A stretch of 20,000 nucleotides of DNA from an uncultured virus (IMG/VR IMGVR_UViG_3300049491_001058) (IMGVR_UViG_3300049491_001058), one strand, 5' to 3'. Shown: positions 3,478-20,000, counted from the first letter of the stretch. Notes: generated by a model from the sequence alone, not told the origin. Numbers and translations: made by a program.

Positions 3478-3480
3478 AAA

Positions 3481-6841: not shown

Positions 6842-7540
6842 ATGTCGAACATCCTTCAGTGGAGAAGTATCTCTGAGCAATCTTCATTTCCATTTTGGGA
6901 AGGATCCTCTGTGGACCTTAATCGAGCAATCATAGATGCTCGAATAAACCTTCCTCACCAAAGCGGCGGAGCTTATTTGAAATCAGTTTCTCGGGTCGGT
7001 GACTCCGTAAAGATTGAGGTGTATTCAATAGAAGAGGTCAAAATAGGAACCCTGAATATTGACCAAAGCGCCGAGAGCGCGGTCGAACTAGTTAACGATA
7101 CAGGGATCCACACAGGCCTGATTGTATTTAACAAAGAGGAAGCGATGGGCCTCAAGCCAAAGACCTACAGTAAAGAGCAGACAGCGTTTGAAAAGACATG
7201 CTGTGTCTCCTCTCCATTCAGAAGGGTCTCCTCCTTGTTGGCCGGAAAGACAAAAGCTGTGGGTCACGTAGCTCTCGTTGAAGGGGCCGGGATCAGGATC
7301 ATAAAAGTGAATGAAAACTTGATCAGACTGGATGCGATTGGCGTTCCGGCCGTAAAGGCAGCTTGCTGCGCAGAGGTCGGCGACCCAGTTCTTGGAATAA
7401 ATGATGCGATCCCCGATCGCTATGGAGCTATTCGTTTTGGGCTTCAACCATTTACAGAGCCGGACACGTCGTCGGACTTAATCCAACTTCTCCGAATCTC
7501 CACAAAAACGAATGGTCTTAACTTTTATCTATCAAAATGA
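6842..7540 (+). CDS. Structural protein, paralogue 4 of 5 (232 aa)
   Basis: ATG abuts the upstream TAA. WRSISEQSSFPF...AIIDARI; LVEGAGIRI...IRLDA; ACC...VLGINDAIPDRYG. Confidence 0.68.
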   Translation: MSNILQWRSISEQSSFPFWEGSSVDLNRAIIDARINLPHQSGGAYLKSVSRVGDSVKIEVYSIEEVKIGTLNIDQSAESAVELVNDTGIHTGLIVFNKEEAMGLKPKTYSKEQTAFEKTCCVSSPFRRVSSLLAGKTKAVGHVALVEGAGIRIIKVNENLIRLDAIGVPAVKAACCAEVGDPVLGINDAIPDRYGAIRFGLQPFTEPDTSSDLIQLLRISTKTNGLNFYLSK

Positions 7541-8346
7541 CAGACGCTTTTGTAGAATTTTTAACCGAGAACTCCCAGAGGTCTTATCCTTTTGAGGAGA
7601 ACTCTGTGTTGAAGGCGGACGACGACAGCGTTTTGCAGGATGACATTTTACTGGACTTCATCCTTATTCATCGGCTCAAGCATCTAACTGCAAAACTTGT
7701 TGCGATTGTTGGGCCGGAATCCAGTGGGGCGGAGATTTTTCCTCCAGGAGAAACAGGACCGGTGTTCTATTTTCAACTAGGGTCCGGCAGCGACATTGTC
7801 GCAGTTGAATGCTCATCACAAGAGTTCCCGTTCGATGGGTGGGGAAGCATTAGTGACTCCAGATACGAAGACGTCTTTGTTGCAAAAGCCAGGGTGACTT
7901 TTGGTGCCGGTGTGTCCTCGATCCCTTCGGACGTTTTTTGGCAATTTAGTAATTCGGTTATCGAGCCAGGACTGCTGGTGTCGTTATTCAGGAACCAAGT
8001 AGATTCATTAACTATTATCCATGATGAAGGAGATAATGATATTGTCGGCGGAGACGTCTCTTTGATGGGTGGTTACAATTTTGGAGTAACGCAGTCAGGC
8101 CAGACAGTTCGCCTATCTCCCGCTTTGGGAAGCGGTTCGCTAGGGCGCTTTACTGAATCCCTATCAGACGCGGTGAGTTCAAAATGCAATGGATCCCTTC
8201 TTTCTATTAACGGAATTCAGCCAAACGAAAAAGGGGCTTTTGAGATCTCTGGTAGTGGAGGGATAGAGATATTAAACTTCCCAGAGCAACACAAGGTACG
8301 AATAGTAATAAGTCCGGAAACGCTGGGGAGGACAATTTGTGTCTAA
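7537..8346 (+). CDS. Structural protein, paralogue 5 of 5 (269 aa)
   Basis: ATGA overlap. [12 protein letters not shown]...[37 protein letters not shown]. Confidence 0.7.
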
Positions 8347-8731
8347 GTCTTCATGTGGATTCTACTCCCCAATTATCTCGGCCTGTAGTCCATCAAGCGC
8401 AGAGATTACATCGTTCTGTAGAATACCAAGAAGAGGTCTTCCGGCTATTGTCCCTGGTATTCCTGGAAGGCCGGGGTGCGAGGGCGCTCCAGGCTTAGCT
8501 GGCATAGGCCCGACAGGGCCAATGGGACCCTCAGGGCCGATCGGGCCAACTGGTCCAATAGGACCTACTGGACCTACTGGACCTACTGGACCCACTGGGC
8601 CACAAGGATCAGAGGGTCCAGCGGGACCAACAGGACCCAAGGGAGCGACAGGGCCAAGAGGTGATGCTGGATCAGACAGTTCTGGCACAGAGTGCGAAAC
8701 CTCCTGCGCGAAGTGTTTTTATCTTCAATAG
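8339..8731 (+). CDS. Short collagen-like protein A (130 aa) with Cys-rich caps
   Basis: 5+19 Gly-X-Y triplets separated by a GI imperfection. N-cap CGFYSPII..C...C; C-cap [11 protein letters not shown] start overlaps the upstream gene by 8 nt. Confidence 0.85.
8561..8596 (+). repeat. 9-bp tandem repeat (GGACCTACT x3 + GGACCCACT) encoding GPT x4
   Basis: Directly visible; a recent expansion of collagen triplets. Confidence 0.9.
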
Positions 8732-8740
8732 TTCTCAATA

Positions 8741-9118
8741 ATGAACTGCAGCTTTTTTACTCCAATTATTTTAAATGGCGCAGTAGATCCACCGTCACTG
8801 AGTTCTATATGTCTGACCCAACGAAGATTTTTGATTGGGTTTTTAGGAACACCTGGGACACCTGGATGTATAGGGCCTACTGGCCCAGATAATGTGGGGG
8901 TGGTTGGACCAACAGGGCCATCAGGGCCGATTGGCCCAACAGGGCCTACGGGTCCGATTGGTCCTGTTGGTTCGGCTGGATCGGCTGGTGGCGCAGGCCC
9001 TGGAGGCTCTGGAGGAGCGCCGGGATCATCTGGTCCAACAGGGGCTTCCGGCGGACCAGGAGGTGACGGACGACCAAAAGGGTGCGATAATTGCGTTACT
9101 TGTGAATACGCAACATGA
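8741..9118 (+). CDS. Short collagen-like protein B (125 aa) with Cys-rich caps
   Basis: 6+20 Gly-X-Y triplets with an NV interruption. N-cap CSFFTPII...C; C-cap CDNCVTC. Confidence 0.85.
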
Positions 9119-9495
9119 TCTGTGATTTTTTTACCCCAATTATTCAGTCGCCATGTCTTGCGATCGCACCAGACATTCTGTCATTATGTAAATCTCCAAA
9201 GACAAACTTTGCTTGGATTTTTGCACCGAAAGGAAAAAGCGGAGCGCCAGGATGCATAGGAACATCTGGAGAGGTCGGTTTCGCCGGAGAGACGGGTCCT
9301 GTCGGACCATCAGGCCCAGGAGGTGCTGCTGGCGGCGGCGGAAGCGGAGGTTCGACGGGGTCGCCAGGGGCGGCTGGTCCAGCTGGACCCGTAGGGCCAA
9401 CAGGTCCGACAGGACCAGCTGGGTCTGCAGGGCCAAAAGGAAAAGATGGTTGCGCTTCTGAAATCGGTGTATGTAATCAAGCAATCTTTCGCTAA
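9115..9495 (+). CDS. Short collagen-like protein C (126 aa) with Cys-rich caps
   Basis: 25 uninterrupted Gly-X-Y triplets. N-cap CDFFTPII...C...C; C-cap [13 protein letters not shown] overlap with B. Confidence 0.85.
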
Positions 9496-9497
9496 TT

Positions 9498-10856
9498 ATG
9501 GGCTCAGATATTTGTACAAGCATGGCAGGCAGACCAATCTCGGGAATTTCTATCACCCAGGATGATACTTGCGTTAGCTGGACGCACTTGGTTGGACTGC
9601 GTCTTCAGTACAATAGAATCTGGGATAAGCTAAATGACTGCGGAGTCAGTATCGTCAATGGGAAATACGGAGAGGGGTCTCACAGAGAGGAGATCAATCC
9701 ATTACCAACCATTGAGGGGTTTTTTCGTTTAACAGTAAATGCGACAGGAAACGTTAATGATGGCTATGTCTGCAGCGTAGCTTCCGACTCTGATGTTCAT
9801 TTTATTCTCACAGGAGGAACACTGTTAACGGAAAACAGAATTAATACGCCATCCTTGTGGAGCTACTTGGATAGCCAAGGGGCCAGAAAGCCCTTCGCTG
9901 CACAGCTTAAGGATGGTTGTAAAAACTGCTCTAAGTTTCATCCGACAACGCAATCTCCGGCTGATGAATCCATTTCATGTCTCGGAGACGAAACGACTCC
10001 TTATGCCGGGTTCATAAAAATGAACTTTGAGCAAGCCCTTACTGGGTGCGGAGATATTTGGGACTGGGGAGAAAATATAGAAGAACTCAAGGACCACGTA
10101 AATAACTTCGACTGCTACAAGACACTTGCTCCAGAAGATACAGACAAATGTACGGACACTGTCGTATCGTGCTGTGAGGATGTTTATGATATAGGCAGGT
10201 ATGAGACCGTTGGAACAAACTCCCTTGGATTCGAGGTTGTTGCGTTAAAATATGTAGACATCTACGTCTCGGACATTGGAGACCCAAAGCTCGAGGGGTA
10301 TTTAGCTCCATTAATTTATAGCAGCGAGCCAACCCAGATCAGGGATCGTGTAGAAGCGGTCATAAATAATTTTTCTCTTCTCGGCGACTATCTATGTGAT
10401 TCGTGTGGGCCAGTTCTTGATATAGAGGGCTGCGGCCCCGGAAAAGGATTTAAATGCGAGGTGCCATTTACTTTTTCAGGTATTCAGGAGTCTACTGTAG
10501 TAGCTGGAGTATCGTGCTCACAATGCGATGAGGCATTTTCTGGACATATATGTGCTTGTCCGTGGGTTGAGCTCGCAGCGGTAATGGATTTTATTCTAAA
10601 TTACGGGTGCGTGATTGGATGCAGTCTTGAAGATTGCACCTGCCCGACAACAGTCATTGTTGGGTGTATGAATGTGGAGGCCTGCAACTATGACCCATCA
10701 GCTACAGAAAACGACGAAGAGTTGTGCCAATTCTGCTTAGAAGAGGAGTGTATAGACGGAGAGTGTATAGACGCTCCAATCTACGGGTGTATGGATCCCG
10801 GCGCGATCAATTTTAATCCATCAGCAACAATAGATGATGGATCATGCATTTATTGA
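9498..10856 (+). CDS. Acidic cysteine-rich protein (452 aa, 32 Cys) ending in two GC-x-[DN]-x2-A-x-N-[YF]-x-PSAT-x-[DN]-D repeats; candidate fibre tip/adhesin
   Basis: Repeats GCMNVEACNYDPSATENDEELC and GCMDPGAINFNPSATIDDGSC; several CxxC/CxC pairs; lies directly after the collagen trio. Confidence 0.7.
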   Translation: MGSDICTSMAGRPISGISITQDDTCVSWTHLVGLRLQYNRIWDKLNDCGVSIVNGKYGEGSHREEINPLPTIEGFFRLTVNATGNVNDGYVCSVASDSDVHFILTGGTLLTENRINTPSLWSYLDSQGARKPFAAQLKDGCKNCSKFHPTTQSPADESISCLGDETTPYAGFIKMNFEQALTGCGDIWDWGENIEELKDHVNNFDCYKTLAPEDTDKCTDTVVSCCEDVYDIGRYETVGTNSLGFEVVALKYVDIYVSDIGDPKLEGYLAPLIYSSEPTQIRDRVEAVINNFSLLGDYLCDSCGPVLDIEGCGPGKGFKCEVPFTFSGIQESTVVAGVSCSQCDEAFSGHICACPWVELAAVMDFILNYGCVIGCSLEDCTCPTTVIVGCMNVEACNYDPSATENDEELCQFCLEEECIDGECIDAPIYGCMDPGAINFNPSATIDDGSCIY

Positions 10857-10859
10857 TTT

Positions 10860-11435
10860 ATGTATCTCGCACACAATCAGCTAAAGGTAATAGGGTTTGC
10901 TGTTTTGTTGGCAATGGCTAACAAGAAAGAGGCTCGGGCTATACTTGTGGAAAAGTTTCCAGAGCTGGACTGGCTCAATGACGAAGCTCAGCTAAACGCA
11001 TCAAATCGGAAGATCAGAATCTTGTCGGCATTTCGCTCAAAAGGTGACGAAATCGCTGAGTTTTTGCACGAAAACAACAGGACCAGTCCTGTGGTCAGTA
11101 AAATAATAACAGCTTACTGGGAAGAAGTTACAAAGCAAAAGGTCATAGACCTACCCAAAAGAGAGGATGATCCAAAAATAGAAGCTTCAGTGGCGGAGAT
11201 GGGAGCTTCTCTGGTTGGAGCGATGCTTGGTGTGGCAAAAGACATGGTTCAAGGAAGGCCGGTAACAGTGGAGCCGGAGGAACTGGATAGGCGGATGGCT
11301 ATTTGCGCAGGCACAGACATCGAGCCTAAGTGTGAGTTTTTTGCTAGGGAGTCTGGACGGTGCTCAAAGTGTGGATGTTTTGCGAAATTCAAAAACCGCC
11401 TGAATACATCATCTTGCCCTATTGGTCGTTGGTGA
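10860..11435 (+). CDS. Protein with a C-terminal DUF6171-like Cys-rich domain (191 aa)
   Basis: RRMAIC-x8-CEFF...RCSKCGCFAKFK...SSCPIGRW matches the R..IC..C...C..CGC...K......CP..KW pattern I recall for DUF6171; needs HMM confirmation. Confidence 0.7.
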   Translation: MYLAHNQLKVIGFAVLLAMANKKEARAILVEKFPELDWLNDEAQLNASNRKIRILSAFRSKGDEIAEFLHENNRTSPVVSKIITAYWEEVTKQKVIDLPKREDDPKIEASVAEMGASLVGAMLGVAKDMVQGRPVTVEPEELDRRMAICAGTDIEPKCEFFARESGRCSKCGCFAKFKNRLNTSSCPIGRW

Positions 11436-11449
11436 TACCTTTTTGCGAT

Positions 11450-13357
11450 ATGAAGCATTTTGTCCTATTTATCCTTCTTTTTGCAGCAACAAAGACTTGG
11501 TCTCAAAGCCCGAACGCCCAAAGCTCATCGGCGAAACTTGTTGCCTCGGATTTACAAGCTAGAGCAGAGAAAGGGATAGCAAACGGATACGCCCCACTAG
11601 GGGACGGCGCTATTGTCCCCCCAGCAAACCTGCTTCCTGGATTTTCTGGAGCAAGCGACAACACAATTTGGGTAAAGTCAGGGGCGGCCCTCGCTCCACT
11701 GGGAGGGATTACGGCTTCTAGTGGAAATATCACAGCCAACAGTGTGTTCATTGGGCTTTTGGCCTCAGGAATCCCTGGAATTAAAGTAGACTCCGACTCA
11801 TATCCACTGTTTTTGCGTGGAGGTAGCGGCAATAAAGTGATGGTTGATTATGGACAGTCGATTGGCGGAGCAAATTCCCTGAGAAGCGAGTATCTGTGGA
11901 GCATTTCGAACGCGGGAGCTTTTGTTTTTGCCGGAGGGAGCTTTACTGGGGACATTGACTTCAATTCATCTGCGATATCAGAGGTTGGGACCATTGCCGG
12001 AACCGCCTTATCTATCAATATGGCGACCCCAACGATCACTTCATCGTCTGGAAATATAACAATGGCAGTGCCATCGCTCGCTGGCGTTATTGTCCCCTCG
12101 ACAGCGTCGGCCGTGAATGCCACTTTTGCCCTTAACCCTACATCGGCGAATGCTCTTTATGGAAGAAAGGCCTCAACTAACACCTGGGACTCAGTCCAAA
12201 CGTTCTCTGTCGCGCCTGTTGTCCCCGACAGTTCTTTTACTGTAGCAAAAACAACGTCTCTCCAGACCTATTTAGATGGTGCTCTAAAAAAGGATGGGTC
12301 GAACGCCATGTCGGCCAATCTAAATATGACAACCTCTGGCACAAAATACAGGGTTGTCGGAATGGCTGATCCATCAAGCTCTGCAGACGCTGTCACAAAA
12401 GGATACCTTGAGGCTCATTATGTTATGAATCCTGTATCTCAGGTCACGGCAACGACTCCTGTTGTGACTAGCGCTTCGACTGGATCAATAGTTTTGTCTA
12501 TGCCGGCGGCTACTGGATCTGTCGCCGGGTATCTTTCGGCAGCGGACTGGACAACCTTTAATGGCAAACAGGCGGCCCTCACCGCAACCGCACCGCTTTT
12601 AATCTCTGGGTCAGTCATTTCAATGCCAGTGGCTGGGGCTGCACAAAACGGGTACCTGTCCGCTGCCGACTACAACCGATTCGTATGGGCTTCTCCGCCG
12701 AACAGTTCGCCGTGGCTTGATAATGAAATAATGGTCGGTGATACTGCCGAAGGCACAGCTATTAAAAAGATACTGGTTGCTGGGAGCAACGTGGCACTGG
12801 CCAATACTTCGCCATCGGTAACTCTATCTGTCGCCCCAAAACAAAGCCTACTTGTTTCTGTTGCCCCAAAGTCTTCCTTCCTTTTGAATTCGATCATAGC
12901 GCAAGGCCTTGAAACTAATGCCCAAAGCGGGGCTCCTGGATCTATTTATAGTTACGCTATCCCGGCAGACACATTAGCTGTTGGAGATACCGTCACAGTA
13001 AGAGTGACTGGATCTTTCGTCACGACAAGCACGGGGACAATGACGATGTCGGCCACAATAGCTTCAACAGTTATTCCATCAGCAACAGTCACGGCTCTAG
13101 CTGGATCAGCAGAGACTCCCTATATTTTCGAGCTATTTTTTACCGTGAGGAGCTCGACCTCCGTTTCGTGCGTGACGAGACTTACTTCCTGCGGTACCAC
13201 TGTTGTTTCTGCCTCGGTAGACGTGACAGCTCCAACCCTAATTTCATCAGGCCTTGATTTTACTGGAACAACAACCGTGAATATCAAGGCTTACCATGGG
13301 GCCTCGAACGCCTCGAACCATGTGTATGCCGAAACAGGAACAACCAGATTGAACTGA
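11450..13357 (+). CDS. Tail-fibre-like protein (635 aa) with an apparent Sec signal peptide
   Basis: ATG at 11450 follows the upstream stop, whereas the ORF-track start at 11360 overlaps it by 76 nt. N-terminus MKHFVLFILLFAATKTWSQ. Fibre motifs KGIANGYAPL...VPPANL, MADPSSSADAVTKGYL and two GYLSAAD[WY]..F repeats; Ser/Thr/Ala/Gly-rich. Confidence 0.75.
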   Translation: MKHFVLFILLFAATKTWSQSPNAQSSSAKLVASDLQARAEKGIANGYAPLGDGAIVPPANLLPGFSGASDNTIWVKSGAALAPLGGITASSGNITANSVFIGLLASGIPGIKVDSDSYPLFLRGGSGNKVMVDYGQSIGGANSLRSEYLWSISNAGAFVFAGGSFTGDIDFNSSAISEVGTIAGTALSINMATPTITSSSGNITMAVPSLAGVIVPSTASAVNATFALNPTSANALYGRKASTNTWDSVQTFSVAPVVPDSSFTVAKTTSLQTYLDGALKKDGSNAMSANLNMTTSGTKYRVVGMADPSSSADAVTKGYLEAHYVMNPVSQVTATTPVVTSASTGSIVLSMPAATGSVAGYLSAADWTTFNGKQAALTATAPLLISGSVISMPVAGAAQNGYLSAADYNRFVWASPPNSSPWLDNEIMVGDTAEGTAIKKILVAGSNVALANTSPSVTLSVAPKQSLLVSVAPKSSFLLNSIIAQGLETNAQSGAPGSIYSYAIPADTLAVGDTVTVRVTGSFVTTSTGTMTMSATIASTVIPSATVTALAGSAETPYIFELFFTVRSSTSVSCVTRLTSCGTTVVSASVDVTAPTLISSGLDFTGTTTVNIKAYHGASNASNHVYAETGTTRLN

Positions 13358-13358
13358 C

Positions 13359-14081
13359 ATGAGCCAAACCATCATCACCGTTTCGAAAAACGAGAGCGCC
13401 TCCTTGCAAAGTAATGGTGGTGGTAAGTCTGGCTACCGGGTCGATCTTGCTGTTGTTGACGCAATAGGTATCACCCCGAAGATATTTGTGATGCAGCGGG
13501 AAGTTGTGTCGTCCGGAGATAGTGGTGATTACGAGGATCAATTTTATTCAGTGTCTTCTGTTTCACAGCTTGAATCAATCGGTGAGACCCCGTCACTGGA
13601 AACGCCATTCTACCGAACCGATTCAATAAGTTTGATGTTTCAATCAGTAGAGGATGAAAAACTTTACACTGACCAGATCCTTTTATTTATCAACAAGCTT
13701 CGCCTAGCAAACGACTTGGCTAACACAATGACCGGGGAGCAAATAGTAGGTTTCCCTCCGGAAGCGTTGCCTCGTTTTTGGGGATTCTCTCTTGAGACAA
13801 CAATAACAGATGAGATCCTTTTGGCTGGAGCCTCAGATCTTGTCTATTCAAAAGCTCTGACCAAAACGCTGTCGATCACTGGTGCTGCAAAATACGGATA
13901 CCTTGCAATTCGAGAATCATTGGGAGAGATCGACTCCTTAACCATTGGTTCTGTTGAAAAAACAACTCAGGTGACAACTAGAGATGTCGAAGTTTTGGAT
14001 GGACTATCTGTTTCGTATCGAATATACAGGACAGATAACACAACTGCGGCAGCAACATCTATCCTCTTTGAAGCAGAATGA
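13359..14081 (+). CDS. Hypothetical virion-associated protein (240 aa, probably two domains)
   Basis: Starts 1 nt after the upstream stop. The C-terminal YGYLAI..SLG...YRIYRT.N pattern is common in phage structural beta-sandwich domains. Confidence 0.6.
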   Translation: MSQTIITVSKNESASLQSNGGGKSGYRVDLAVVDAIGITPKIFVMQREVVSSGDSGDYEDQFYSVSSVSQLESIGETPSLETPFYRTDSISLMFQSVEDEKLYTDQILLFINKLRLANDLANTMTGEQIVGFPPEALPRFWGFSLETTITDEILLAGASDLVYSKALTKTLSITGAAKYGYLAIRESLGEIDSLTIGSVEKTTQVTTRDVEVLDGLSVSYRIYRTDNTTAAATSILFEAE

Positions 14082-14383
14082 TCATTACGGCTCAAAAAGC
14101 TCTAAACATAGTGAGCAACCACGCTGTGGTGAAAAAGGTCCCCGAGCTGTTGTCGGCAGTGGAGCTGTTTGCTGAGGCCGATCGCGCCTATCGCCCCAAG
14201 AAGGGGTGCGGTGACTGTAAAAAAGCTGACTTCTTCTCTCCTGTCGAAAACAAGGCACTGGAGGCTATTGCAAACCTTTCTCCGGATGCTATTTTAAGAT
14301 TGAAGGCTTTTCTTGGAGTTAAAGATCTATACTTAAATCCAATAGTCCCAGGCAAACAAGCAACCCTCAGAGAGCTCAAATAA
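14078..14383 (+). CDS. Small basic hypothetical protein with CxxC (101 aa)
   Basis: ATGA overlap; KKGCGDCKK motif. Confidence 0.65.
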   Translation: MIITAQKALNIVSNHAVVKKVPELLSAVELFAEADRAYRPKKGCGDCKKADFFSPVENKALEAIANLSPDAILRLKAFLGVKDLYLNPIVPGKQATLRELK

Positions 14384-14384
14384 A

Positions 14385-14783
14385 ATGGCAACATCTTCCC
14401 GACCAATAGGCCTTCGCTCAACACCAGAGCTAGCCATCCCTCAATACGCAAACTGGACGACAGAGCTTCGAACGGTTTCAGCAAATGATGCCTCTCCTGC
14501 CGATGTTAATGATGATGAATGCATTGCCTTGGACAAAGTTGGAGTCCGTGACGGATCCAGGTTTTCAAACAACACGATCGCTCTTTTGGTTAAAGTCATA
14601 ACTGGACCCGCGACTATCTCTCTTTATGCAAGGGAAGGTGTTGATCACTTTCTGGTAGCAGACCCAATTACCTTGACGACCAGCCAGATGGTTGTGTTTG
14701 GAAACCTGCCTCCTTTGATTTATGTTCCCGTTGTCACATCCTTGACGGGAAGTGTAATTATCTCTGGAGGTGGAACCCTGTAG
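14385..14783 (+). CDS. Hypothetical protein (132 aa), beta-rich
   Basis: Tiles the operon with a 1-nt gap; no recognisable family. Confidence 0.6.
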   Translation: MATSSRPIGLRSTPELAIPQYANWTTELRTVSANDASPADVNDDECIALDKVGVRDGSRFSNNTIALLVKVITGPATISLYAREGVDHFLVADPITLTTSQMVVFGNLPPLIYVPVVTSLTGSVIISGGGTL

Positions 14784-14786
14784 TTC

Positions 14787-15002
14787 ATGATTCTGCCTCT
14801 CCTCTTCTCGACAGCTTTTGGATGCACACTCAATAACAGACTGAGTGATGCGTTTGAAAGTCCGTTTGCGGAAGGTGGCGGCGGCGAACCCTCTCCGGTT
14901 GGCGGACCATTCAATCCGGGAACAAACCTATCTTCCGGCGAATCTAGCGGAGTGCTGGATTACTCAAAAACAGTTGATTACTCAACATACGTGGTTTTTT
15001 AA
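14787..15002 (+). CDS. Small hypothetical protein (71 aa)
   Basis: Fills the gap with 3-nt spacers on both sides; Gly/Pro linker; ends LDYSKTVDYSTYVVF. Confidence 0.55.
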   Translation: MILPLLFSTAFGCTLNNRLSDAFESPFAEGGGGEPSPVGGPFNPGTNLSSGESSGVLDYSKTVDYSTYVVF

Positions 15003-15005
15003 TTT

Positions 15006-16703
15006 ATGGCTCTTACTCAAATAAGTGACGGAATGTCGGTCGAGGCGATGGCGAACGCAATCAATGCAGGCCTTTCCGGGATTGACTCAAACACAGCAAG
15101 TCTCGCGACCAAAGCTCCGCTAGAAAGCCCCACGTTTACTGGAACTGTCGCAGGTATAACCAAGGCGATGGTCGGATTAGGCGACGCGGATAACACGGCA
15201 GACATGGACAAGCCGTTAAGCGATCCTCAAGCGGTGGCGATCGGCGCAGCATTAGCTGCCAGGGAGCCCCTGCAAGTCAGTGTCACTCAGCCTGAAGCAG
15301 AAGCTGGGACAGAAACAAACATACGCAGATGGAGCCCCTTGCGCGTGTGGCAAGCCATCTCGGCTAAAATTGCAGCTATGTTCTGCTCACAAGCTGAGGC
15401 TGAGGAAGGCACTAACACGAGTAAACTGCTGAACCCTTACCGAGCAGCTCAAGCAATCACAGCTAAAATCAGCTCTCTACTCGCTAGTGAGCTGGAAGCG
15501 CAGACAGGCGTTGACACGGGAAAATTAATGACACCTTACCGCACAGCCCAAGCCATAGCTGTGTTGGGCGGTAGCGGCGGTGGCGGAGGCTCAACCCTGG
15601 TCCGAGGAATAGGCACCCTACAAGGATTCACGTATGGCGAGACCCCTGGAGTTGTTGAGATCGTAGAGGTTACTATTGTGGACGACGTGGGAGCCAGTTC
15701 TCATGGCAAAGACTTCCGTTTGAGGACCACCGGAAATGAGGAAGTGGCGGTAGTAATGAACTGCGGAGCTGCCATTGAGGTGATGGAGGTATCCTTCTCT
15801 GGCATGACGGGAGCTAACTTCATAACCAACGGGGAGGGGGTCTATATACGTCACTCTTGGCTAGGGCTAGACAATATACGTGTCGTGTGGTTTAACACAG
15901 GCACCGAGTCTGCGCCCACGGGCGTATCAGCGACAGCTGGCTTCTTCGTGGAGGTGGTTATCGACCCGTCTGCCTCAGCGGAGGACATCACCGCTGCTTT
16001 CGCCGCTACTGGCTCGGGCTCCATCACATCCTCGGGGGTTATAGCGACGGCTAACGACGGCCAATCAGGGGTAAGGTCTGAAGCTCCTAGCAGCACGCAC
16101 GAGCTGATAGTTATTACCAGGACCACAGTGGGACGCGCTGAAGCTGGCGCTGTGCCCGGTATCACTAGTATCATTGTGCCAGTTACGCCTGCCGACTCTG
16201 CGGCTATTATCGCATCCACCATTGCCAGCGCTTGTAACGGACATGGGTGGAGCACTAATTATGGATCATCATCTGTTACCTTTACGTCTGATTCCGTTGG
16301 CGCTAGGTCCGCACCAAGCTCAGGCACCTCCGGTTACTCGGTAACAGTTTTCCAGTATGGTGTAGACTTTACGCCCGCAGGCGGTGATGTTTCGGAGGTG
16401 ACTCTGATACCGACGCAGGCAGGTAAACGTATCAAATGTATCCGAGCATGGTCAATAGGTGGAGACTCGGGCTTTTCTATGAGCTACGAGCTAGCGCTAA
16501 AAGCTGGGGACGCTTACTATACGCTGGGAACGTTTAACTCTAGCGCCAGCTATGCTGTGGTGGAGTTTCAACCTGCATCCACCGATTCGCTAGCACTATG
16601 GTTCGCCGGTAACGCTATAAACGATTCGCTGGTGGCACGGATCACCGGTTCGACGCCAAGCGGAGGTGCCGTGACGATAGGCGCGATTACTGAGCAGCTT
16701 TAG
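15006..16703 (+). CDS. Tail fibre protein (565 aa)
   Basis: KAPLESPTFTGTVAGITKAMVGLGDADNTADMDKPLS is a common fibre motif. Three ~33-aa EA..G.....[ST]P.R..QAI repeats, a GGSGGGGGS linker, then a C-terminal beta-rich region. Confidence 0.85.
   Translation: MALTQISDGMSVEAMANAINAGLSGIDSNTASLATKAPLESPTFTGTVAGITKAMVGLGDADNTADMDKPLSDPQAVAIGAALAAREPLQVSVTQPEAEAGTETNIRRWSPLRVWQAISAKIAAMFCSQAEAEEGTNTSKLLNPYRAAQAITAKISSLLASELEAQTGVDTGKLMTPYRTAQAIAVLGGSGGGGGSTLVRGIGTLQGFTYGETPGVVEIVEVTIVDDVGASSHGKDFRLRTTGNEEVAVVMNCGAAIEVMEVSFSGMTGANFITNGEGVYIRHSWLGLDNIRVVWFNTGTESAPTGVSATAGFFVEVVIDPSASAEDITAAFAATGSGSITSSGVIATANDGQSGVRSEAPSSTHELIVITRTTVGRAEAGAVPGITSIIVPVTPADSAAIIASTIASACNGHGWSTNYGSSSVTFTSDSVGARSAPSSGTSGYSVTVFQYGVDFTPAGGDVSEVTLIPTQAGKRIKCIRAWSIGGDSGFSMSYELALKAGDAYYTLGTFNSSASYAVVEFQPASTDSLALWFAGNAINDSLVARITGSTPSGGAVTIGAITEQL
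15282..15560 (+). repeat. Three ~33-34-aa tail-fibre repeats
   Basis: TQPEAEAGTETNIRRWSPLRVWQAISAKI / SQAEAEEGTNTSKLLNPYRAAQAITAKI / SELEAQTGVDTGKLMTPYRTAQAIA. Confidence 0.85.
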
Positions 16704-16744
16704 TTGCGACATCAATATTTGTTTAACTTCTCCAGGATATTATC

Positions 16745-17146
16745 ATGATATTCATTGGTCCATACGAAAACCCTGCAGTTCTTGCTGTTCCTGGAAATAT
16801 CGCCCCAGAAACTCCGATAGTTAACAGACTATCCTGGGGAGAAAAAATTGTATTTCAAATTCCTGACCCAGAGTCCGATTGCTTAATTAAGCTTTTGATT
16901 AAGGCTGATATCGCCCTGGCGGAAGCACTCATAGAGGTTGAGTTTGAAAGGATTGAAGATGGAGACGTTGAGCTTTCCGTTTCATCAACAGAGTCCATTA
17001 AATACCTCTATCCCGGAATCTTCTTTTTTCAGGTCGTTTATGTTACCGCTGGCGAGAATGAAGAGCTCTCTTACGCAATGGGGAACCAAGGCGTTTTTGA
17101 ATTGATCGAGACAGCTGGAAGTAGTGTAATACCTAGGCCAGATTAG
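16745..17146 (+). CDS. Acidic hypothetical protein (133 aa), possibly a BppU-N-like Ig-type adaptor
   Basis: GDVELSVSSTES..LYPGIFFFQV......QGVFEL resembles the strand pattern of phage adaptor domains; last gene of the structural run. Confidence 0.5.
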   Translation: MIFIGPYENPAVLAVPGNIAPETPIVNRLSWGEKIVFQIPDPESDCLIKLLIKADIALAEALIEVEFERIEDGDVELSVSSTESIKYLYPGIFFFQVVYVTAGENEELSYAMGNQGVFELIETAGSSVIPRPD

Positions 17147-17147
17147 C

Positions 17148-17183
17148 TTGCCTCTTTTGATAGTTCTTAGGCCATAATACTAT
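17148..17183 (+). promoter_or_regulatory. Possible promoter for the right-hand transcription unit
   Basis: -10-like CATAAT (17173-17178) and TACTAT (17178-17183), with TTGCCT (17148) or TTGATA (17157) upstream. Spacings are 19 and 15 nt, both non-canonical. The structured region begins immediately downstream. Confidence 0.3.
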
Positions 17184-17185
17184 GT

Positions 17186-17316
17186 AGAGGACTCTTATCC
17201 TCTCAAAGATCTCCCCAGCAATGGGGTCGCCGAAAGGCATTGGAGACATTGGCATTTATGTCAGTGGGGCCGGTCAGTGTGTTCGAACATGCTGATCGGC
17301 CTTCTCATTTTGAGAG
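17186..17316 (+). ncRNA. Candidate structured RNA / 5' leader (multi-branch), family not recognised
   Basis: Closing stem CTCTCAAAG(17200-08)/TTTTGAGAG(17308-16) encloses CCCCA-GCAA-TGGGG, GCC-GAAA-GGC, CATTGGCA-TTTA-TGTCAGTG and a 15-bp stem at 17268-17301. Confidence 0.55.
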
Positions 17317-17401
17317 ACCATGCTCAAGGACTTGATGCGGTTCTATCCGTCGCATCCCGTATTACGTCAGTTTAGAAGCTGGCAAAGGGGTAGCCAATAA
17401 A

Positions 17402-18112
17402 ATGAAATCCATTATTATTGCAATCGTCGCAGCGGTATCTTTCACCTATGGTTACGCCAAAGGTGAGACGGTCACCCAGAAAGCTATCGCAGGAGCTGAA
17501 ACCCTGGCCGCGAAAGCGATCACGGACGGCAACCTTACGGCAGCCAAGGGGTGGAGTGAAGTGGCAACCAACCTTCGCTTGGGGATGTATATCGCCCCAT
17601 TCGGAGATTTGGCCAGCCAGTTCAGCGGTCAGGTCAAAAACCTACCTGCCTTCATCAAAGCCTCAACAGAGGTCGAGGCGGCCAAGCCGATTACTGAATG
17701 GTATCAAAACCCGTTCAGCTCGGTGGCCGTCAGTGAGGTTCTCGCGAACAATCCGGAAGGGTTTAAGCGGGGTCTTGTTCAATCGGCTATTTGGAGCGCA
17801 GTCAGTTTCCCAGGAACCTGGGACGTGCGTGAAGAAGGGCAGAAAAAGCTCATGGATGCCATGAGCAAGGGTACGACCAAGGAGGAAGCAAAGGCAATCG
17901 AAGATGCCAATAAAAAGGCTGAAGAGATTGCCGAAAAGTTGGCTAAGCCAACACCAGTGCAATTCGAGGCGCTGAAGAGCTGGATCATCGCAGGATGTCC
18001 AACAACCAAGGATGAGTTCATCGTCCAGATAAGCACCCAAACCAAGGCGGCCATTAAGTTGGCCCCTTTGATCCCCCTTCTAAACGAAGGCGGAAAAGTT
18101 GCTGCCAAGTAA
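17402..18112 (+). CDS. Secreted or membrane-anchored hypothetical protein (236 aa), Ala/Lys-rich and helical
   Basis: Signal-peptide-like MKSIIIAIVAAVSFTYGYAKG; purine-rich AAAGGGG upstream; long clean ORF. Confidence 0.8.
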   Translation: MKSIIIAIVAAVSFTYGYAKGETVTQKAIAGAETLAAKAITDGNLTAAKGWSEVATNLRLGMYIAPFGDLASQFSGQVKNLPAFIKASTEVEAAKPITEWYQNPFSSVAVSEVLANNPEGFKRGLVQSAIWSAVSFPGTWDVREEGQKKLMDAMSKGTTKEEAKAIEDANKKAEEIAEKLAKPTPVQFEALKSWIIAGCPTTKDEFIVQISTQTKAAIKLAPLIPLLNEGGKVAAK

Positions 18113-18414
18113 TGAACTGCGGAACTACCCGCAATAACAAAGCGATCCCGGTGAGAAGCCGGGTAGAATTTCCACTGAAGCAGTGGTTGAGGACGAAGCC
18201 TTGTAAAAAATACGTAAACTACCAAATGTGCCTCCATCTGGCTGATGAAGGAGTTTGGAAGAGTCAAGCGCTTCGGCCGTTTGACGAAGGACACTTAAGC
18301 CCATTCCTTGGCAAGACCTTGGAAGCAATCAACATCGTGGTATTCGATGCTCTGTGCCAATTCCCCTTGTCGCTAGTTCATTTTTACGGCGATAAATGGA
18401 ACGATAAGCCATGA
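18112..18414 (+). CDS. Possible hypothetical protein (100 aa), or non-coding structured RNA
   Basis: TAATG coupling to the upstream gene supports it, but the composition is unremarkable and the interval is densely base-paired. Confidence 0.4.
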   Translation: MNCGTTRNNKAIPVRSRVEFPLKQWLRTKPCKKYVNYQMCLHLADEGVWKSQALRPFDEGHLSPFLGKTLEAINIVVFDALCQFPLSLVHFYGDKWNDKP

Positions 18415-18659
18415 GAGTCAGGCATTGACGGGTCCCATAACCCTGAATTCCAGGATCGCCGTGCGACGGTCTGCCATCCGTGGCTCGCACATTAATTTCA
18501 ACCCGCAGTTCGCCTTCTTGGCTGCGGGGCTTAGATAGAAAGAAGAGACCGAACGATCTAATGATCTATTACGTTACCAAGGATGGCCTCGTGATCTCTC
18601 CTCAGGAGTTCAGGGCAGGCGCTCGATAAGGGCTCCATCCGCTATGAGTAAGACTCGGG

Positions 18660-18695
18660 GTCTCAGCGACCTGTCAACAGAACGCTGAGATTTTT
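18660..18695 (+). terminator. Possible intrinsic terminator
   Basis: TCTCAGCG-AC-CTG-TCAA-CAG-AA-CGCTGAGA hairpin followed by TTTTT. Confidence 0.45.
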
Positions 18696-18877
18696 AGCCG
18701 ACAGCACTCCCTCTGCTTGGGAGAAATTTTCAGGCAGTCATGCCTCTCCCCAAAATGGCTACCCGACTCCTAGGGTAATTCTTCGTGTGTTAAATCACGT
18801 CCAGCCTTCCACCTTGAAAATGGAAGTTCAATACTTGGATTGAAGGAATTGGTTGAAAGACCGAGGAGTGCAATGAT

Positions 18878-19030
18878 ATGAGCTATGAGCCAGCAATGGA
18901 TCACGAAATGCGAGAAGAGATGCTCGCTAATGGAGACTCATGGGAAGAAGCCATAAGGCTCTTCCCGTTATCAGTAAGAGAGCTCCTTCTCTTAGAGCTC
19001 TCCAACAAAGCTATGGAGGTACCTCAATAG
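18878..19030 (+). CDS. Small acidic protein (50 aa), not in the ORF track: MSYEPAMDHEMREEMLANGDSWEEAIRLFPLSVRELLLLELSNKAMEVPQ
   Basis: SD GAGGAG at 18863-18868, 9 nt before the ATG; stop TAG lies 1 nt before the next ATG. Confidence 0.6.
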   Translation: MSYEPAMDHEMREEMLANGDSWEEAIRLFPLSVRELLLLELSNKAMEVPQ

Positions 19031-19031
19031 T

Positions 19032-19223
19032 ATGAAGGATATTATTCTCCATCTCCTGGGTGGAAGGCTCAAGGCTGCCATCCAGGAAAGGTCCAAACTT
19101 CCAAAAGGACACACCAATAACCTGCCAATGCAGATTATTGATAACTGGATTGGAGCTGGTCGAGGAAATTCGGAGGATCGAAAGTTCCTCCGACTTTACC
19201 TCGACCAAAACTTCCCTCGGTAA
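19032..19223 (+). CDS. Small hypothetical protein (63 aa)
   Basis: SD GGAGGT at 19015-19020; follows the 50-aa ORF by 1 nt. Confidence 0.55.
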   Translation: MKDIILHLLGGRLKAAIQERSKLPKGHTNNLPMQIIDNWIGAGRGNSEDRKFLRLYLDQNFPR

Positions 19224-19234
19224 AACGAGGGACA

Positions 19235-19319
19235 ACGGGCTCGCTTCGGCGTGTTGCGTTTTTATGTGCTTCCTGTAAAACGGAGGTATATGAAAATGCA
19301 ACACGTCGGAGCGGGCCGT
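19235..19319 (+). ncRNA. Long intergenic RNA hairpin (38 bp, one bulge, 8 G-U pairs)
   Basis: Arms 19235-19273 and 19282-19319 pair fully when G-U is allowed; loop TGTAAAAC. Confidence 0.75.
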
Positions 19320-19358
19320 GTTATTTGCATAGGCGTGCATTTTTCTTAGCTACTGAAA

Positions 19359-19607
19359 ATGAATCATTTTACTTTGGGAGGATGGGTTAGCCTCTCTATC
19401 TCTCTAGGGGCAAGAAAACTCTCAATGGAGCACCATGTGCTTTTTCGAGCTGTATTTTTTGACCTAGAGAAAGACAGAGACGCTTTTCTAGAATTAAGCG
19501 GAGAAGAGTTTCCGGACGAGTTTTTCGTCCCCGAGACGCTTGGTGGCGTCCCGATAATACAAAACAAGTTTTCGCCAATTTTGGCGAAGCAACAAAATGC
19601 ACCATGA
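19359..19607 (+). CDS. Small hypothetical protein (82 aa; the start may be the later MEHH)
   Basis: ATGA overlap with the next gene; acidic/aromatic C-terminal half looks protein-like. Confidence 0.55.
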   Translation: MNHFTLGGWVSLSISLGARKLSMEHHVLFRAVFFDLEKDRDAFLELSGEEFPDEFFVPETLGGVPIIQNKFSPILAKQQNAP

Positions 19608-19882
19608 ACCAGAAAACGTTAATTGGAAAAGTAACTGCTACAGCCAACTCAATCGCTGCAGCAGTTGAAAAAGCACTGGGCTTGTCCATCCAAGGACAGG
19701 CCCTTGTTGTGGCTGGCTTCATTGCTGGCTACTTCGGGCTCCAGGCGGTATTCACTTACCTGATCTGGGGGTTTGTCATCCTGACGGTTTTCCGGTTCGG
19801 CCGGGAGATCGCCAAGAAGGACGATGACGGCTCTCCTGGGGCCGAAATGACAGGGGTCGAAGTGCCCCCTCACCAGGAATAA
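19604..19882 (+). CDS. Small membrane protein (92 aa)
   Basis: Hydrophobic ALVVAGFIAGYFGLQAVFTYLIWGFVILTVF (1-2 TM segments) and an acidic C-tail. Confidence 0.7.
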   Translation: MNQKTLIGKVTATANSIAAAVEKALGLSIQGQALVVAGFIAGYFGLQAVFTYLIWGFVILTVFRFGREIAKKDDDGSPGAEMTGVEVPPHQE

Positions 19883-19886
19883 CAAA

Positions 19887-19920
19887 GCCCAGGTCAAGGA
19901 GTTCGCTTCTTGGCCTGGGT
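19887..19920 (+). other. 15-bp stem with UUCG tetraloop after the stop codon (3' stabiliser, processing site or atypical terminator)
   Basis: GCCCAGGTCAAGGAG-TTCG-CTTCTTGGCCTGGGT, 3 G-U pairs; no immediate U-tract. Confidence 0.7.
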
Positions 19921-20000
19921 AATCATTTTGATAACGACAAGCTGTGTCATGTTCAGTAGCTCAATAGAGAGCAGGTTCTTAAAGTGCCATAGGTTAAGGG

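Follow-up and report, generated by a model that had tools for sequence, protein, structure and literature searches.

The last 2.8 kb of the analysed window, a 20,000-nt stretch of DNA from an uncultured virus, is far richer in hairpins than the remainder of the window or other phage DNA. Based on local-fold energy over the whole segment relative to dinucleotide shuffles, 17186-20000 reached z -16.0 on the + strand, with 31% extra folding energy (MFED), and z -10.6 on the - strand (23%), whilst seven upstream controls of 700 nt spanned only z +0.66 to -2.32 on the + strand (MFED -3 to 10%), in accordance with an earlier note on this DNA that had seen no comparable density in the upstream structural operon. 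The excess over 1-17 kb described there was likewise borne out by a sliding-window scan (120-nt windows, step 60, 25 dinucleotide shuffles each), with mean z of -2.47 (+) and -1.86 (-) across the region (n = 45) and -0.36 (+) and -0.30 (-) across 1-17100 (n = 285; Mann-Whitney p = 3e-10 for + and 3e-9 for -). Uninterrupted stems of at least nine positions numbered 11 in the region compared to 3.08 +/- 1.65 in 200 shuffles (maximum 9), and 25 upstream compared to 19.3 +/- 4.7. A baseline was drawn from 240 kb of unrelated phage DNA (13 loci, both strands), scanned in 2062 sliding windows of 2.8 kb. Summed over local structures, |z| reached 87.4 in the region (baseline maximum 71.1), and seven structures fell at z <= -5 (baseline maximum 5).

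The signal is biased to the + strand, which fits the expectation for RNA rather than DNA palindromes. Over the whole region, E(+) minus E(-) was -88.7 kcal/mol compared to -20.2 +/- 15.0 in shuffles (z -4.6, 0/30 as low), confirming the asymmetry that the earlier note had proposed. Mismatches in all stems comprised 22 G-T and 10 A-C; this overall G-T excess stems from the intergenic hairpins (16:0), whereas stems within ORFs showed the reverse (6:10), so that the preference for G-T over A-C holds overall and between genes only. Together, the strand bias and the 16:0 intergenic ratio support selection on + strand RNA over DNA palindromes.

Other parts of the earlier description were overstated. 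Folding "almost end-to-end" goes too far, as 18113-18650 (~0.5 kb) is barely structured on the + strand (z only -2.0 by local-fold energy), with 120-nt windows starting at 18121-18601 giving z+ between +1.1 and -1.2. Where "more than 40 stems" had been counted, the local structures that attain z <= -3 without overlapping number only 16, and many of the short stems are at chance level. The UUCG, GCAA and GAAA loops are of the GNRA/UNCG kind, which makes up 4/15 tetraloops in the region and 3/22 upstream, too few to call enrichment. Long-range RNA architecture was absent from the centroid structure, in which local hairpins alone survive.

Paralogous terminator-like hairpins and the genes between them

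Two + strand hairpins, T1 (17267-17316) and T2 (19887-19934), are paralogues with compensatory changes. T1 has a 16-bp stem with four G-U pairs and no A-C mismatch, and T2 a 15-bp stem with three G-U pairs and a UUCG loop; both are followed, 2 nt past the stem, by the 9-mer TCATTTTGA, whose sole exact + strand copies in the 20-kb window lie at 17305 and 19923. Their alignment keeps 15/15 pairs (30/30 cells paired), with 6/15 changed on both sides, and this pairing was matched by only 6/500 shuffles. A covariance model built from the two (R1) scored T1 at 68.3 bits and T2 at 64.6 bits, and detected no further copy in the window (next match 11.3 bits) or in 523 kb of other phage DNA.

T1 and T2 rank first and second among + strand terminator-like sites in the window. 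T1 lies 120 nt beyond the last structural-operon gene (stop at 17146) and T2 only 5 nt past the stop of a 92-aa gene. With them, four + strand hairpins carry U-rich tails (17267-17302, 18661-18690, 19234-19322 with 19326-19339, and 19887-19920). The 18661-18695 element, an 11-bp hairpin that contains a 2x2 internal loop and has five U after it, is located 247 nt past the stop of a 100-aa ORF, and the small 5-bp hairpin at 19326-19347 (stem 19326-19339) precedes a U-rich run, UUUUUCUU, where the transcription unit with the hairpin array described below may end. The anatomy of an intrinsic terminator, a G+C-rich stem-loop with a U-rich tract, is seen in T1, T2, 18661-18690 and 19326-19339, and its placement, downstream of a stop at a unit end, in T2, T1 and the 18661 hairpin. 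In both T1 and T2 the U-tract is interrupted (UCAUUUUGA) and able to fold into a mini-hairpin of its own, an uncommon feature among intrinsic terminators. A scan for sigma-70-type promoters remained at chance level (19 sites, 18.0 expected), and no sigma-70-like site adjoins T1, T2 or the other hairpins.

Two of the + strand ORFs between T1 and T2 are real genes. The first (17402-18112) encodes a 236-aa protein with a hydrophobic N-terminus, has a coding score of 0.042 bits/nt and one full-length homologue (48% identity by BLASTP, 55% by alignment), and matches no Pfam or PHROG family. The second (19604-19882; 0.029 bits/nt), with three homologues (47, 38 and 42% identity), encodes a small membrane protein of 92 aa whose core is hydrophobic and whose C-terminus is charged. 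Of doubtful coding status is the 100-aa ORF at 18112-18414, whose start overlaps the stop of the 236-aa gene; it scored -0.021 bits/nt, whilst 0/95 equally long true-gene segments fell at or below -0.011. The 82-aa ORF at 19359-19607, whose stop overlaps the start of the 92-aa gene, is probably a gene, on the weak evidence of a score of 0.015 bits/nt.

Tentatively, and at a little under even confidence, we read the region as a moron- or PeSL-like accessory cassette carrying terminator and processing hairpins, plus a hairpin array that would be a non-coding RNA or a long UTR. The cassette would comprise + strand accessory genes of an orphan freshwater tailed phage, directly downstream of its tail-fibre genes and flanked by the terminator-type hairpins T1 and T2, with T2 as its end. 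The U-rich-tailed hairpins at 18661-18695 and 19234-19347 would divide it into roughly three short units of transcription: the conserved 236-aa gene with the doubtful 100-aa ORF; the ~0.7-kb array of long independent hairpins, probably non-coding and closed by a G-U-rich hairpin of 40 bp; and the conserved 92-aa membrane-protein gene preceded by the 82-aa ORF. Forming in + strand RNA, the U-rich-tailed hairpins would terminate or attenuate transcription, which would insulate the cassette from the presumably late structural operon; they may also block 3' exonucleases. Transcription, termination, processing and any biological role of the cassette are what we infer from these features.

A hairpin array with poor coding signal

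The core of the region, 18651-19358 on the + strand, is an array of about 19 local hairpins, of which 18940-18968, 19054-19087, 19115-19140, 19158-19206, 19213-19232 and 19234-19322 are strong. Its local-fold energy gives z -16.3 (MFED 56%) on the + strand and z -11.3 on the - strand, with a strand asymmetry of z -4.7 (0/60 shuffles as low). The near-perfect 20-bp hairpin at 19158-19206, with a GAAA loop, folds equally on either strand (E+ -30.8 and E- -29.7 kcal/mol; z about -6.6 and -6.7). The giant hairpin at 19234-19322 has 40 bp, nine of them G-U, with a single bulged base and no A-C mismatch (8 G-T and 0 A-C among the 36 positions of its core), and favours the + strand (E+ -64.1 vs E- -31.0 kcal/mol; z -11.6 vs -4.9).

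This ~0.7 kb is probably non-coding. The two ORFs in the array, of 50 and 63 aa, scored -0.028 and -0.051 bits/nt under a coding model derived from this phage, whilst none of ~100 true-gene segments scored <= -0.023; as the training set consisted of structural genes, small genes gained by horizontal transfer could be real despite a low score. In a word-indexed search of 5.8 billion proteins each of the two matched only itself. They are preceded by the Shine-Dalgarno-like motifs GAGGAG and GGAGG, which carry no weight because 0/19 genes upstream of the region have a Shine-Dalgarno sequence. Recoding TAG or TGA opened no long + strand ORF in the array. Overall, ~0.94 kb lacks a convincing gene, whereas upstream genes overlap or lie no more than ~40 nt apart.

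RNase III processing sites are double-stranded stems of about two helical turns or more in intercistronic RNA, a length reached by both the 20-bp and the 40-bp hairpin. As these long duplexes are the type of substrate cut by a double-strand-specific RNase of the RNase III type, the cassette reading would make the array either a long UTR or a non-coding RNA that is processed or has a stabilising effect.

A doubtful, if credible, alternative is that a stand-alone structured non-coding RNA gene of 0.3-0.65 kb, spanning 18697-19347 or only the densely paired 3' part (19054-19347), has its own role in phage-host conflict and that the surrounding terminators are simply its frame. Candidate functions are a double-stranded-RNA decoy or sponge for host defence proteins that bind or cut RNA, a small-RNA precursor, or a regulator of neighbouring genes. 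The gene-poor stretch amid tightly packed upstream genes, the extreme fold excess with its + strand bias and the ORFs without homologues are consistent with such a gene, as is a layout that starts right after a terminator-like hairpin and closes with a hairpin and U-run. The earlier suggestion of a large non-coding RNA with embedded small ORFs comes close to our own reading of 18651-19358. Large ornate RNAs typically contain multi-stem junctions, whereas the array is predicted to be a string of simple, nearly perfect hairpins without them. Moreover, no promoter was found, the - strand folds well too, and none of 4227 Rfam 15 models matched in the window at gathering score; at E <= 5, 16700-20000 yielded only four chance-level matches (eukaryotic microRNA and lncRNA models; ylbH).

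Structure in coding sequence and on the opposite strand

Terminators and processing sites do not explain the structure within conserved coding sequences, nor do they account for elements whose - strand fold is as good as, or better than, that on the + strand (19158-19206, 19115-19140, the 82-aa ORF). Codon-preserving shuffles had been named in the earlier note as a refutation test, and with 50 synonymous-codon shuffles per ORF the excess survives in both genes with homologues, 17402-18112 (z -5.6 on +, -3.2 on -) and 19604-19882 (z -3.3 on +, -2.7 on -), with 0/50 shuffles as low as the + strand fold in each. The mRNA or DNA of the 236-aa gene therefore carries structure beyond codon requirement. 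The 82-aa ORF gave z -3.9 (+) and -5.7 (-), and the ORFs at 18878-19030 and 19032-19223 z+ of -3.1 and -6.0; nine upstream control ORFs ranged from +0.23 to -2.27. The claim of structure inside ORFs is thus upheld for real genes, but the ORFs with the strongest hairpins are probably not genes. At 27-30%, MFED in the coding parts of the region is about tenfold the median of 0.032 given, for the same window size, in a survey of 4969 natural phage genomes (PMC11409064).

This excess would be expected if selection packed transcripts, coding sequence included, into stems that leave few single-stranded sites, as an "armoured" mRNA protected against host endoribonucleases, RNase toxins or RNA-guided nucleases, or with a lengthened life. 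The 236-aa gene also folds better on the + than on the - strand (asymmetry z -2.2). We consider such armouring very unlikely, as the coding part formed by the 82-aa and 92-aa ORFs shows no strand bias (z -0.4), stems inside ORFs contain more A-C than G-T mismatches, and nothing within the window points to an RNA-targeting host defence. The most structured segments of the 236-aa gene (17821-17982, residues 140-194) fall in a poorly conserved part with indels, and structure may sit where the protein tolerates it. The single continuous armoured polycistronic RNA envisaged earlier, which might resist RNases or RNA-targeting CRISPR, live long or be packaged into virions, is further contradicted by the four U-rich-tailed hairpins, which would divide it into about three units, and by the 0.5 kb with barely any + strand structure.

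The - strand signal, far beyond chance across the whole region, and the several stems that are strand-symmetric or better on that strand could instead reflect a DNA-level element, in which inverted repeats extrude into cruciforms or fold into hairpins while replication or packaging intermediates are single-stranded. Such repeats might mark an origin of replication, sites of single-strand initiation or of packaging, or points of recombination and exchange resembling integron attC sites or PeSLs. A break in the source run's assembly graph coincides with the left edge of the cassette (17164-17187) and could mean alternative neighbours in the population. This explanation is highly improbable: Watson-Crick stems fold on both strands whatever their cause, so a - strand signal is expected under RNA selection too, and the strongest hairpins depart widely from perfect DNA palindromes. 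RNA on the + strand is also favoured by + and - fold energies of -30.6/-19.7 (T1), -69/-35.9 and -26.8/-18.5 (T2) kcal/mol. The nine G-T positions of the 40-bp hairpin accompany a halving of its energy on the - strand. Iterons, direct-repeat families and an AT-rich tract are absent, the window has no replication gene and no integrase family among its 27 ORFs, and attC-type boxes are lacking when the sequence is read against the consensus.

Relation to known systems

The cassette reading finds its closest counterparts in phage accessory regions. Promoter-early stem-loop (PeSL) cassettes occupy hyperplastic regions of T4-type phages, and they share with the present region small, mostly orphan genes away from the conserved structural block and intergenic stem-loops with G-T pairs and a terminator or attenuator role, this role being putative here (Arbiol et al. 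2010, PMC2839356; Comeau et al. 2014, PMC4122927). Further likenesses to those accounts are a composite motif repeated at gene ends, here the T1/T2 hairpin with its shared 9-mer, and the proposed insulation of accessory genes from the structural (presumably late) operon, with module swapping. The differences are that this phage is unrelated to the T4-type, that T4-type genomes are described with ~50 motif copies compared to at least two here, both in the orphan-gene region of the 20 kb covered, on a contig with a further 58 kb, and that the strong sigma-70-like early promoter joined to the stem-loop there is absent at the hairpins here. PeSLs as described are also short and intergenic, and leave the 0.7-kb array, the 40-bp hairpin and the structure in coding sequence unexplained.

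The region also resembles lambdoid morons, small accessory genes in units closed by intrinsic terminators, in its small accessory genes downstream of tail-fibre genes and in units closed on the coding strand by a G+C-rich hairpin with a U-rich tail. Four terminator-like hairpins in 2.7 kb, with stems of 15-40 bp, are however longer and denser than usual, the T1 and T2 U-tracts are interrupted, and promoters were not found. Phage T7 carries RNase III processing hairpins between its genes, lambda has such hairpins too, and RNase III cleavage leaves protective 3' hairpins. The 20- and 40-bp hairpins fit the size and position of those intercistronic duplexes of ~20 bp or more in polycistronic phage RNA, with cleavage here putative; the stems are nearly perfect, whereas in T7 sites internal loops direct single cuts.

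GOLLD and ROOL are large phage-associated non-coding RNAs, with many GOLLD examples from freshwater. The array is similar in comprising several hundred nt of structured, ORF-poor phage sequence of freshwater origin, but its hairpins are simple and strung one after another, unlike an ornate multi-junction fold, and no tRNA is adjacent; GOLLD, ROOL, HEARO, OLE and other Rfam 15 families were rejected on zero covariance-model matches at gathering score. RNA viruses and ssRNA phages have genome-scale ordered RNA structure, and a fold-energy excess running through coding sequence (MFED 27-30%, and 31% over the 2.8 kb) is common to them and to this region, which is however a limited module of a dsDNA phage rather than a whole RNA genome, with a partly strand-symmetric signal.

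Mobile and repetitive elements were also considered. REP/BIME and MITE-like interspersed palindromic repeats were rejected, with no hairpin repeat family besides T1/T2. In integron attC sites the conserved outer boxes end in AAC and begin with GTT, and an integron integrase lies nearby; here AAC/GTT occurs only at the base of the 40-bp hairpin, the remainder of the consensus is absent, and attC was rejected. A diversity-generating retroelement or retron was rejected as well, given no reverse transcriptase family in the window, no Rfam retron family and no direct repeat shared by the tail-fibre genes and the region.

A bolder reading, which we hold to be quite unlikely, is that a dsDNA phage here encodes a dedicated, terminator-framed RNA of ~0.3-0.7 kb (18697-19347) made almost entirely of long near-perfect hairpins, representing a new class of counter-measure or regulator. 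If so, the 40-bp duplex would be kept as G-U pairs so that the DNA avoids a perfect palindrome, and the dsRNA-rich transcript would act as a decoy or sponge for host defence proteins, or as a small-RNA precursor cut by a double-strand-specific RNase. The neighbouring genes would then have been recoded to high mRNA structure for the same reason.

Folding of 17186-20000 compared with upstream and other phage DNA

The final 2.8 kb of the window fold far more stably than the rest. A sliding scan (120-nt windows, 25 dinucleotide shuffles each) gave mean z-scores, in which negative values mark greater stability than the shuffles, of -2.47 on the + strand and -1.86 on the - strand for 17186-20000 (n = 45 windows), compared with -0.36 and -0.30 upstream (n = 285; p ~1e-9 to 1e-10). 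The upstream values agree with the median folding-energy excess of 0.032 reported for 4969 phage genomes at the same window size (PMC11409064). Folded as a whole segment, the region reached a z of -16.0 with 31% excess energy on the + strand and -10.6 with 23% on the - strand, while seven 700-nt controls ranged from +0.66 to -2.32. Non-overlapping RNALfold structures at z <= -3 numbered 16 in these 2.8 kb versus 39 in the remaining 17.2 kb, and seven of the 16 reached z <= -5. For an outside comparison, 2062 sliding 2.8-kb windows were taken from both strands of 13 phage loci (240 kb) with no relation to this one. Summed |z| was 87.4 for the region versus a maximum of 71.1 elsewhere, and structures at z <= -5 numbered seven versus at most five, whereas the plain count of 16 at z <= -3 was matched in other loci (maximum 18). 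It is therefore the strength of its hairpins, and not their number alone, that places the region at the extreme of phage DNA.

The contrast with upstream sequence claimed in the earlier note thus holds in the sliding windows, the whole-segment z, the RNALfold counts and the outside windows, and the stems it listed are present in the sequence. Its tally of more than 40 consecutive stems includes short ones at chance level, and the description of folding almost end to end was overstated, since 18113-18650 has a + strand z of only -2.0.

The only other low-z part of the window lies at 8-10 kb (mean z ~-1.1, local structures to -74 kcal/mol), where the GGN-CCN codon repeats of collagen-type genes are self-complementary and so account for the low values. 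Separately, in five unrelated IMG/VR loci retrieved by a tail-fibre match (L004, L007, L015, L021 and L025), the strand of the matched gene carried about twice the density of stable structures (4.1-4.8 versus 2.2-2.6 per kb at z <= -3), either through a genuine effect of strand or because the z-score model is biased by composition.

Hairpins and genes of the proposed cassette

Two terminator-like hairpins bracket the proposed accessory cassette. T1 (17267-17302; 16 bp, 4 G-U), 120 nt past the last structural gene, and T2 (19887-19920; 15 bp, 3 G-U, UUCG loop) are each followed by the 9-mer TCATTTTGA, of which exactly two + strand copies occur in the 20 kb, each 2 nt past one of these stems. 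Judged by their alignment, T1 and T2 are paralogues: all 15 common pairs are kept, of which seven are identical, six differ in both bases and two in one base, and both hairpins have a basal G-U pair and, at matching places in the stem, GGTCA. Column shuffles did as well in 6 of 500 cases, and slid registers paired only 32-53%. The 9-mer is also able to fold into a mini-hairpin of its own, and the outer pair of that hairpin differs between the two copies in a compensatory way (C-G in T1, A-U in T2). A covariance model built from both hairpins, R1, scored 68.3 bits for T1 and 64.6 bits for T2 in the window, with the next match at 11.3 bits, and found no element of this type in other phage loci totalling 523 kb. 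This is the only covariation at hand and, because it comes from two sequences, it lends modest support to a selected hairpin.

Between T1 and T2 lie a 236-aa gene (17402-18112), a 100-aa ORF (18112-18414), a ~0.7-kb array of hairpins (18651-19358), an 82-aa ORF (19359-19607) and a 92-aa gene (19604-19882). The array includes, at 18661-18690, an 11-bp hairpin with five U directly behind it, after which the chain extends to 19232 through hairpins of 11 bp (18940-18968), 14 bp with 3 G-U (19054-19087), 10 bp (19115-19140), 20 bp with a GAAA loop (19158-19206) and 7 bp (19213-19232). Its last hairpin, of 40 bp with 9 G-U (19234-19322), is followed by a 5-bp hairpin and a U-rich run to 19347, and in the final 290 nt (19054-19347) some 230 nt fall within six hairpins. 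Within the 40-bp hairpin, the 3' arm has a GGAGG and then in-frame ATGs at 19291 and 19297, which open a frame of 17-19 codons (19291-19349) whose end lies in the U-run; the context TGAAAATG is common to the ATG at 19297 and the start of the 82-aa ORF at 19359. This frame might represent a sequestered mini-ORF, or it might arise purely by chance. Two hairpins of the array, at 19112-19143 and 19213-19232, have U-rich tracts behind them on the - strand and not on the +, so that a short antisense transcript could end at these positions.

Two of the ORFs have homologues. The 236-aa protein has one, of 255 aa, at 48% identity by BLASTP and 55% by alignment with both ends conserved, and the 92-aa protein has three with a common hydrophobic core. 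A three-periodic Markov coding model trained on 16 upstream genes scored these ORFs at 0.042 and 0.029 bits/nt and the 82-aa ORF at 0.015, compared with -0.021 for the 100-aa, -0.034 for the 49-aa, -0.028 for the 50-aa and -0.051 for the 63-aa ORF, with the caveat that acquired small genes may differ from structural genes in codon use. Scores of -0.023 or lower occurred in none of ~100 leave-one-out segments of true genes. A word-indexed search of 5.8 billion proteins returned only self-matches for the 50-aa and 63-aa ORFs. The GAGGAG and GGAGG motifs preceding these two ORFs carry no weight because upstream genes show no such sites, and within the array the number of Shine-Dalgarno-like motifs is too low to indicate enrichment. 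Reading TAG as Q or TGA as W opened no long + strand ORF. On these results 18415-19358 probably does not code for protein, and the same may hold for 18113-18414. Pfam, PHROGs and a protein atlas yielded nothing usable on what the 236-aa and 92-aa proteins do; that the latter has a hydrophobic core and a charged tail gives no more than an impression of a holin-like role.

The structural block and searches for relatives

Our analysis covers 20 of the contig's 78 kb, which likely come from a freshwater-sediment metagenome, according to the run index. Positions 1-17146 hold densely packed + strand genes, the majority without a Pfam or PHROGs family. A tail-fibre N-terminal motif (15006-16703), together with three tail-fibre-like proteins that carry collagen repeats (8339-9495), identifies this stretch as a tailed phage's structural block; the collagen-repeat genes are consecutive and small (130, 125 and 126 aa, Gly-X-Y). 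A 665-aa ORF (11360-13357, GTG start) overlaps the preceding gene (10860-11435) by 76 nt, so that a later start is probably the true one. Each of the three stop codons is used, giving no sign of stop-codon recoding. Shine-Dalgarno sites are absent from all 19 genes with starts in 1-17146; A/T-rich sequence precedes the starts, and stops often overlap the next start. These 19 starts suggest a host not reliant on Shine-Dalgarno sites, possibly a Bacteroidota-like one.

On the searches made, the phage appears to be an orphan without cultured or catalogued relatives. Against 50,697 phage records, blastn found no related DNA and tblastn with three window proteins found no match, while an exact 48-nt pattern and a degenerate T1/T2 pattern retrieved no relative from IMG/VR viral contigs. 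Neither pattern searches with the 236-aa protein in IMG/VR, JGI metagenomes and GTDB genomes nor searches with its alignment gave a related locus, and the same was true of queries with the 750-aa and 665-aa proteins and with the alignment of the 92-aa protein. The 565-aa tail-fibre protein matched 35 loci, which were rejected as relatives since only its N-terminal motif was in common; in any single locus, at most two of 27 window proteins matched. A second freshwater sample, from another study, contained 11 low-depth pieces of 16700-20000 with no differing letters, placing the same phage genotype in at least two samples and leaving no variants on which covariation can be tested. The run index listed no RNA run with this DNA. 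In the likely source run, Logan contigs break at 17164-17187, exactly the left edge of the cassette (depth 11.3 for the piece ending at 17187, 9.26 for the next, from 17164). This could be a branch in the assembly graph, with part of the population having a different sequence after the structural block, or the break could equally be technical.

Readings of the cassette

A moron-type cassette fits three features: the four U-tailed + strand hairpins placed where genes end, the small size and orphan status of the genes, and the location just behind the tail-fibre genes. We tentatively favour this reading, in which the four hairpins would divide the accessory cassette into roughly three transcription units and the whole would be insulated from the structural, presumably late, operon. 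In size the two long duplexes, of 20 and 40 bp, match substrates of double-strand-specific RNases and, cut or intact, they would shield upstream RNA from 3' exonucleases, a role that duplex hairpins play in phages T7 and lambda. Their G-U pairs may allow long RNA stems to form without a perfect, unstable DNA palindrome. Such functional statements rest on inference from the anatomy of the cassette. A sigma-70 promoter scan of the window stayed at chance level, and a Bacteroidota-type -7 box had no + strand copy in the region.

The 0.7-kb core could be a long structured UTR of such a cassette or a separate non-coding RNA. A stand-alone functional RNA is a less probable reading. The probably non-coding state of 18415-19358 speaks for it, whereas an Rfam scan of the window returned no family, GOLLD-type RNAs included. 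A tRNA scan returned nothing.

The armoured mRNA proposed in the earlier note, packed with structure across its coding sequence, is improbable. Excess structure does persist inside true coding sequence: when synonymous codons were permuted within each ORF (50 permutations), none was as stable as the native sequence in the 236-aa (z+ -5.6) or 92-aa (z+ -3.3) gene, and z+ was -3.9 for the 82-aa ORF and +0.23 to -2.27 for nine upstream ORFs. Folding-energy excess in the two conserved genes is about ten times the median reported for phage genomes (PMC11409064), which is unusual for protein genes of a dsDNA phage. The most structured part of the 236-aa gene (17821-17982, residues 140-194) encodes a poorly conserved, indel-bearing protein segment. 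The strongest hairpins (19157-19207 and neighbours), once placed wholly inside a coding sequence, would not be in a gene if 18415-19358 is non-coding.

An element acting at the DNA level is the least probable of the four readings, with strand-symmetric stems on its side and the following strand preferences against it. The - strand signal by itself says little because Watson-Crick stems fold on both strands. With a stem finder that accepted G-T and A-C mismatches alike, the ratio was 22 to 10 in the region, 26 to 21 upstream and about equal in shuffles; the predominance of G-T noted earlier is thus found overall and in the four intergenic hairpins (16:0), and not inside ORFs (6:10). On the - strand, T1, T2 and the 40-bp hairpin retain only half to two thirds of their folding energy, and E(+) minus E(-) for the region was -88.7 kcal/mol versus -20.2 +/- 15 in shuffles (z -4.6, 0/30). 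The asymmetry z was -4.7 for the array (0/60 shuffles), -2.2 for the 236-aa gene and -0.4 for the 82-/92-aa part; the 19115-19140 hairpin and the 82-aa ORF fold better on the - strand. Selection on + strand RNA, which had been proposed for the whole region, therefore has good support in the intergenic hairpins and in the array and weak support in the 236-aa gene, and is not shown for the remaining stems. GNRA and UNCG loops, also cited in its favour, made up 4 of 15 tetraloops versus 3 of 22 upstream, which is not significant. None of the four readings explains all features, the strand-symmetric stems and the structure of the 82-aa ORF being left over.

Among described systems, the accessory cassette comes closest to the PeSL cassettes in the hyperplastic regions of T4-type phages, which are repeated terminator/promoter motifs with G-T stem-loops between orphan genes (PMC2839356, PMC4122927). 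The likeness is one of layout: the defining promoter feature of PeSL is missing here, two motif copies were seen in 20 kb, and the phage is unrelated to the T4 type. REP/MITE-type repeats were ruled out, as the hairpins include no repeat family beyond T1/T2, and so were retron, DGR and integron (attC) systems, for which Pfam/PHROGs and repeat searches were negative.

If the hairpins work as proposed, this accessory cassette would carry unusually dense RNA-level punctuation, comprising termination, processing and stabilization, in a lineage without cultured or catalogued relatives and with a host that probably does not use Shine-Dalgarno sites. Composite terminator cassettes, known in T4-type phages, would thereby extend to an unrelated phage, and T1 and T2 would offer two natural, putative long hairpin terminators with built-in compensatory changes. 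Should the core instead be a functional RNA, it would represent a new phage non-coding RNA made of double-stranded segments, with a bearing on how phages handle RNA-directed host defences.
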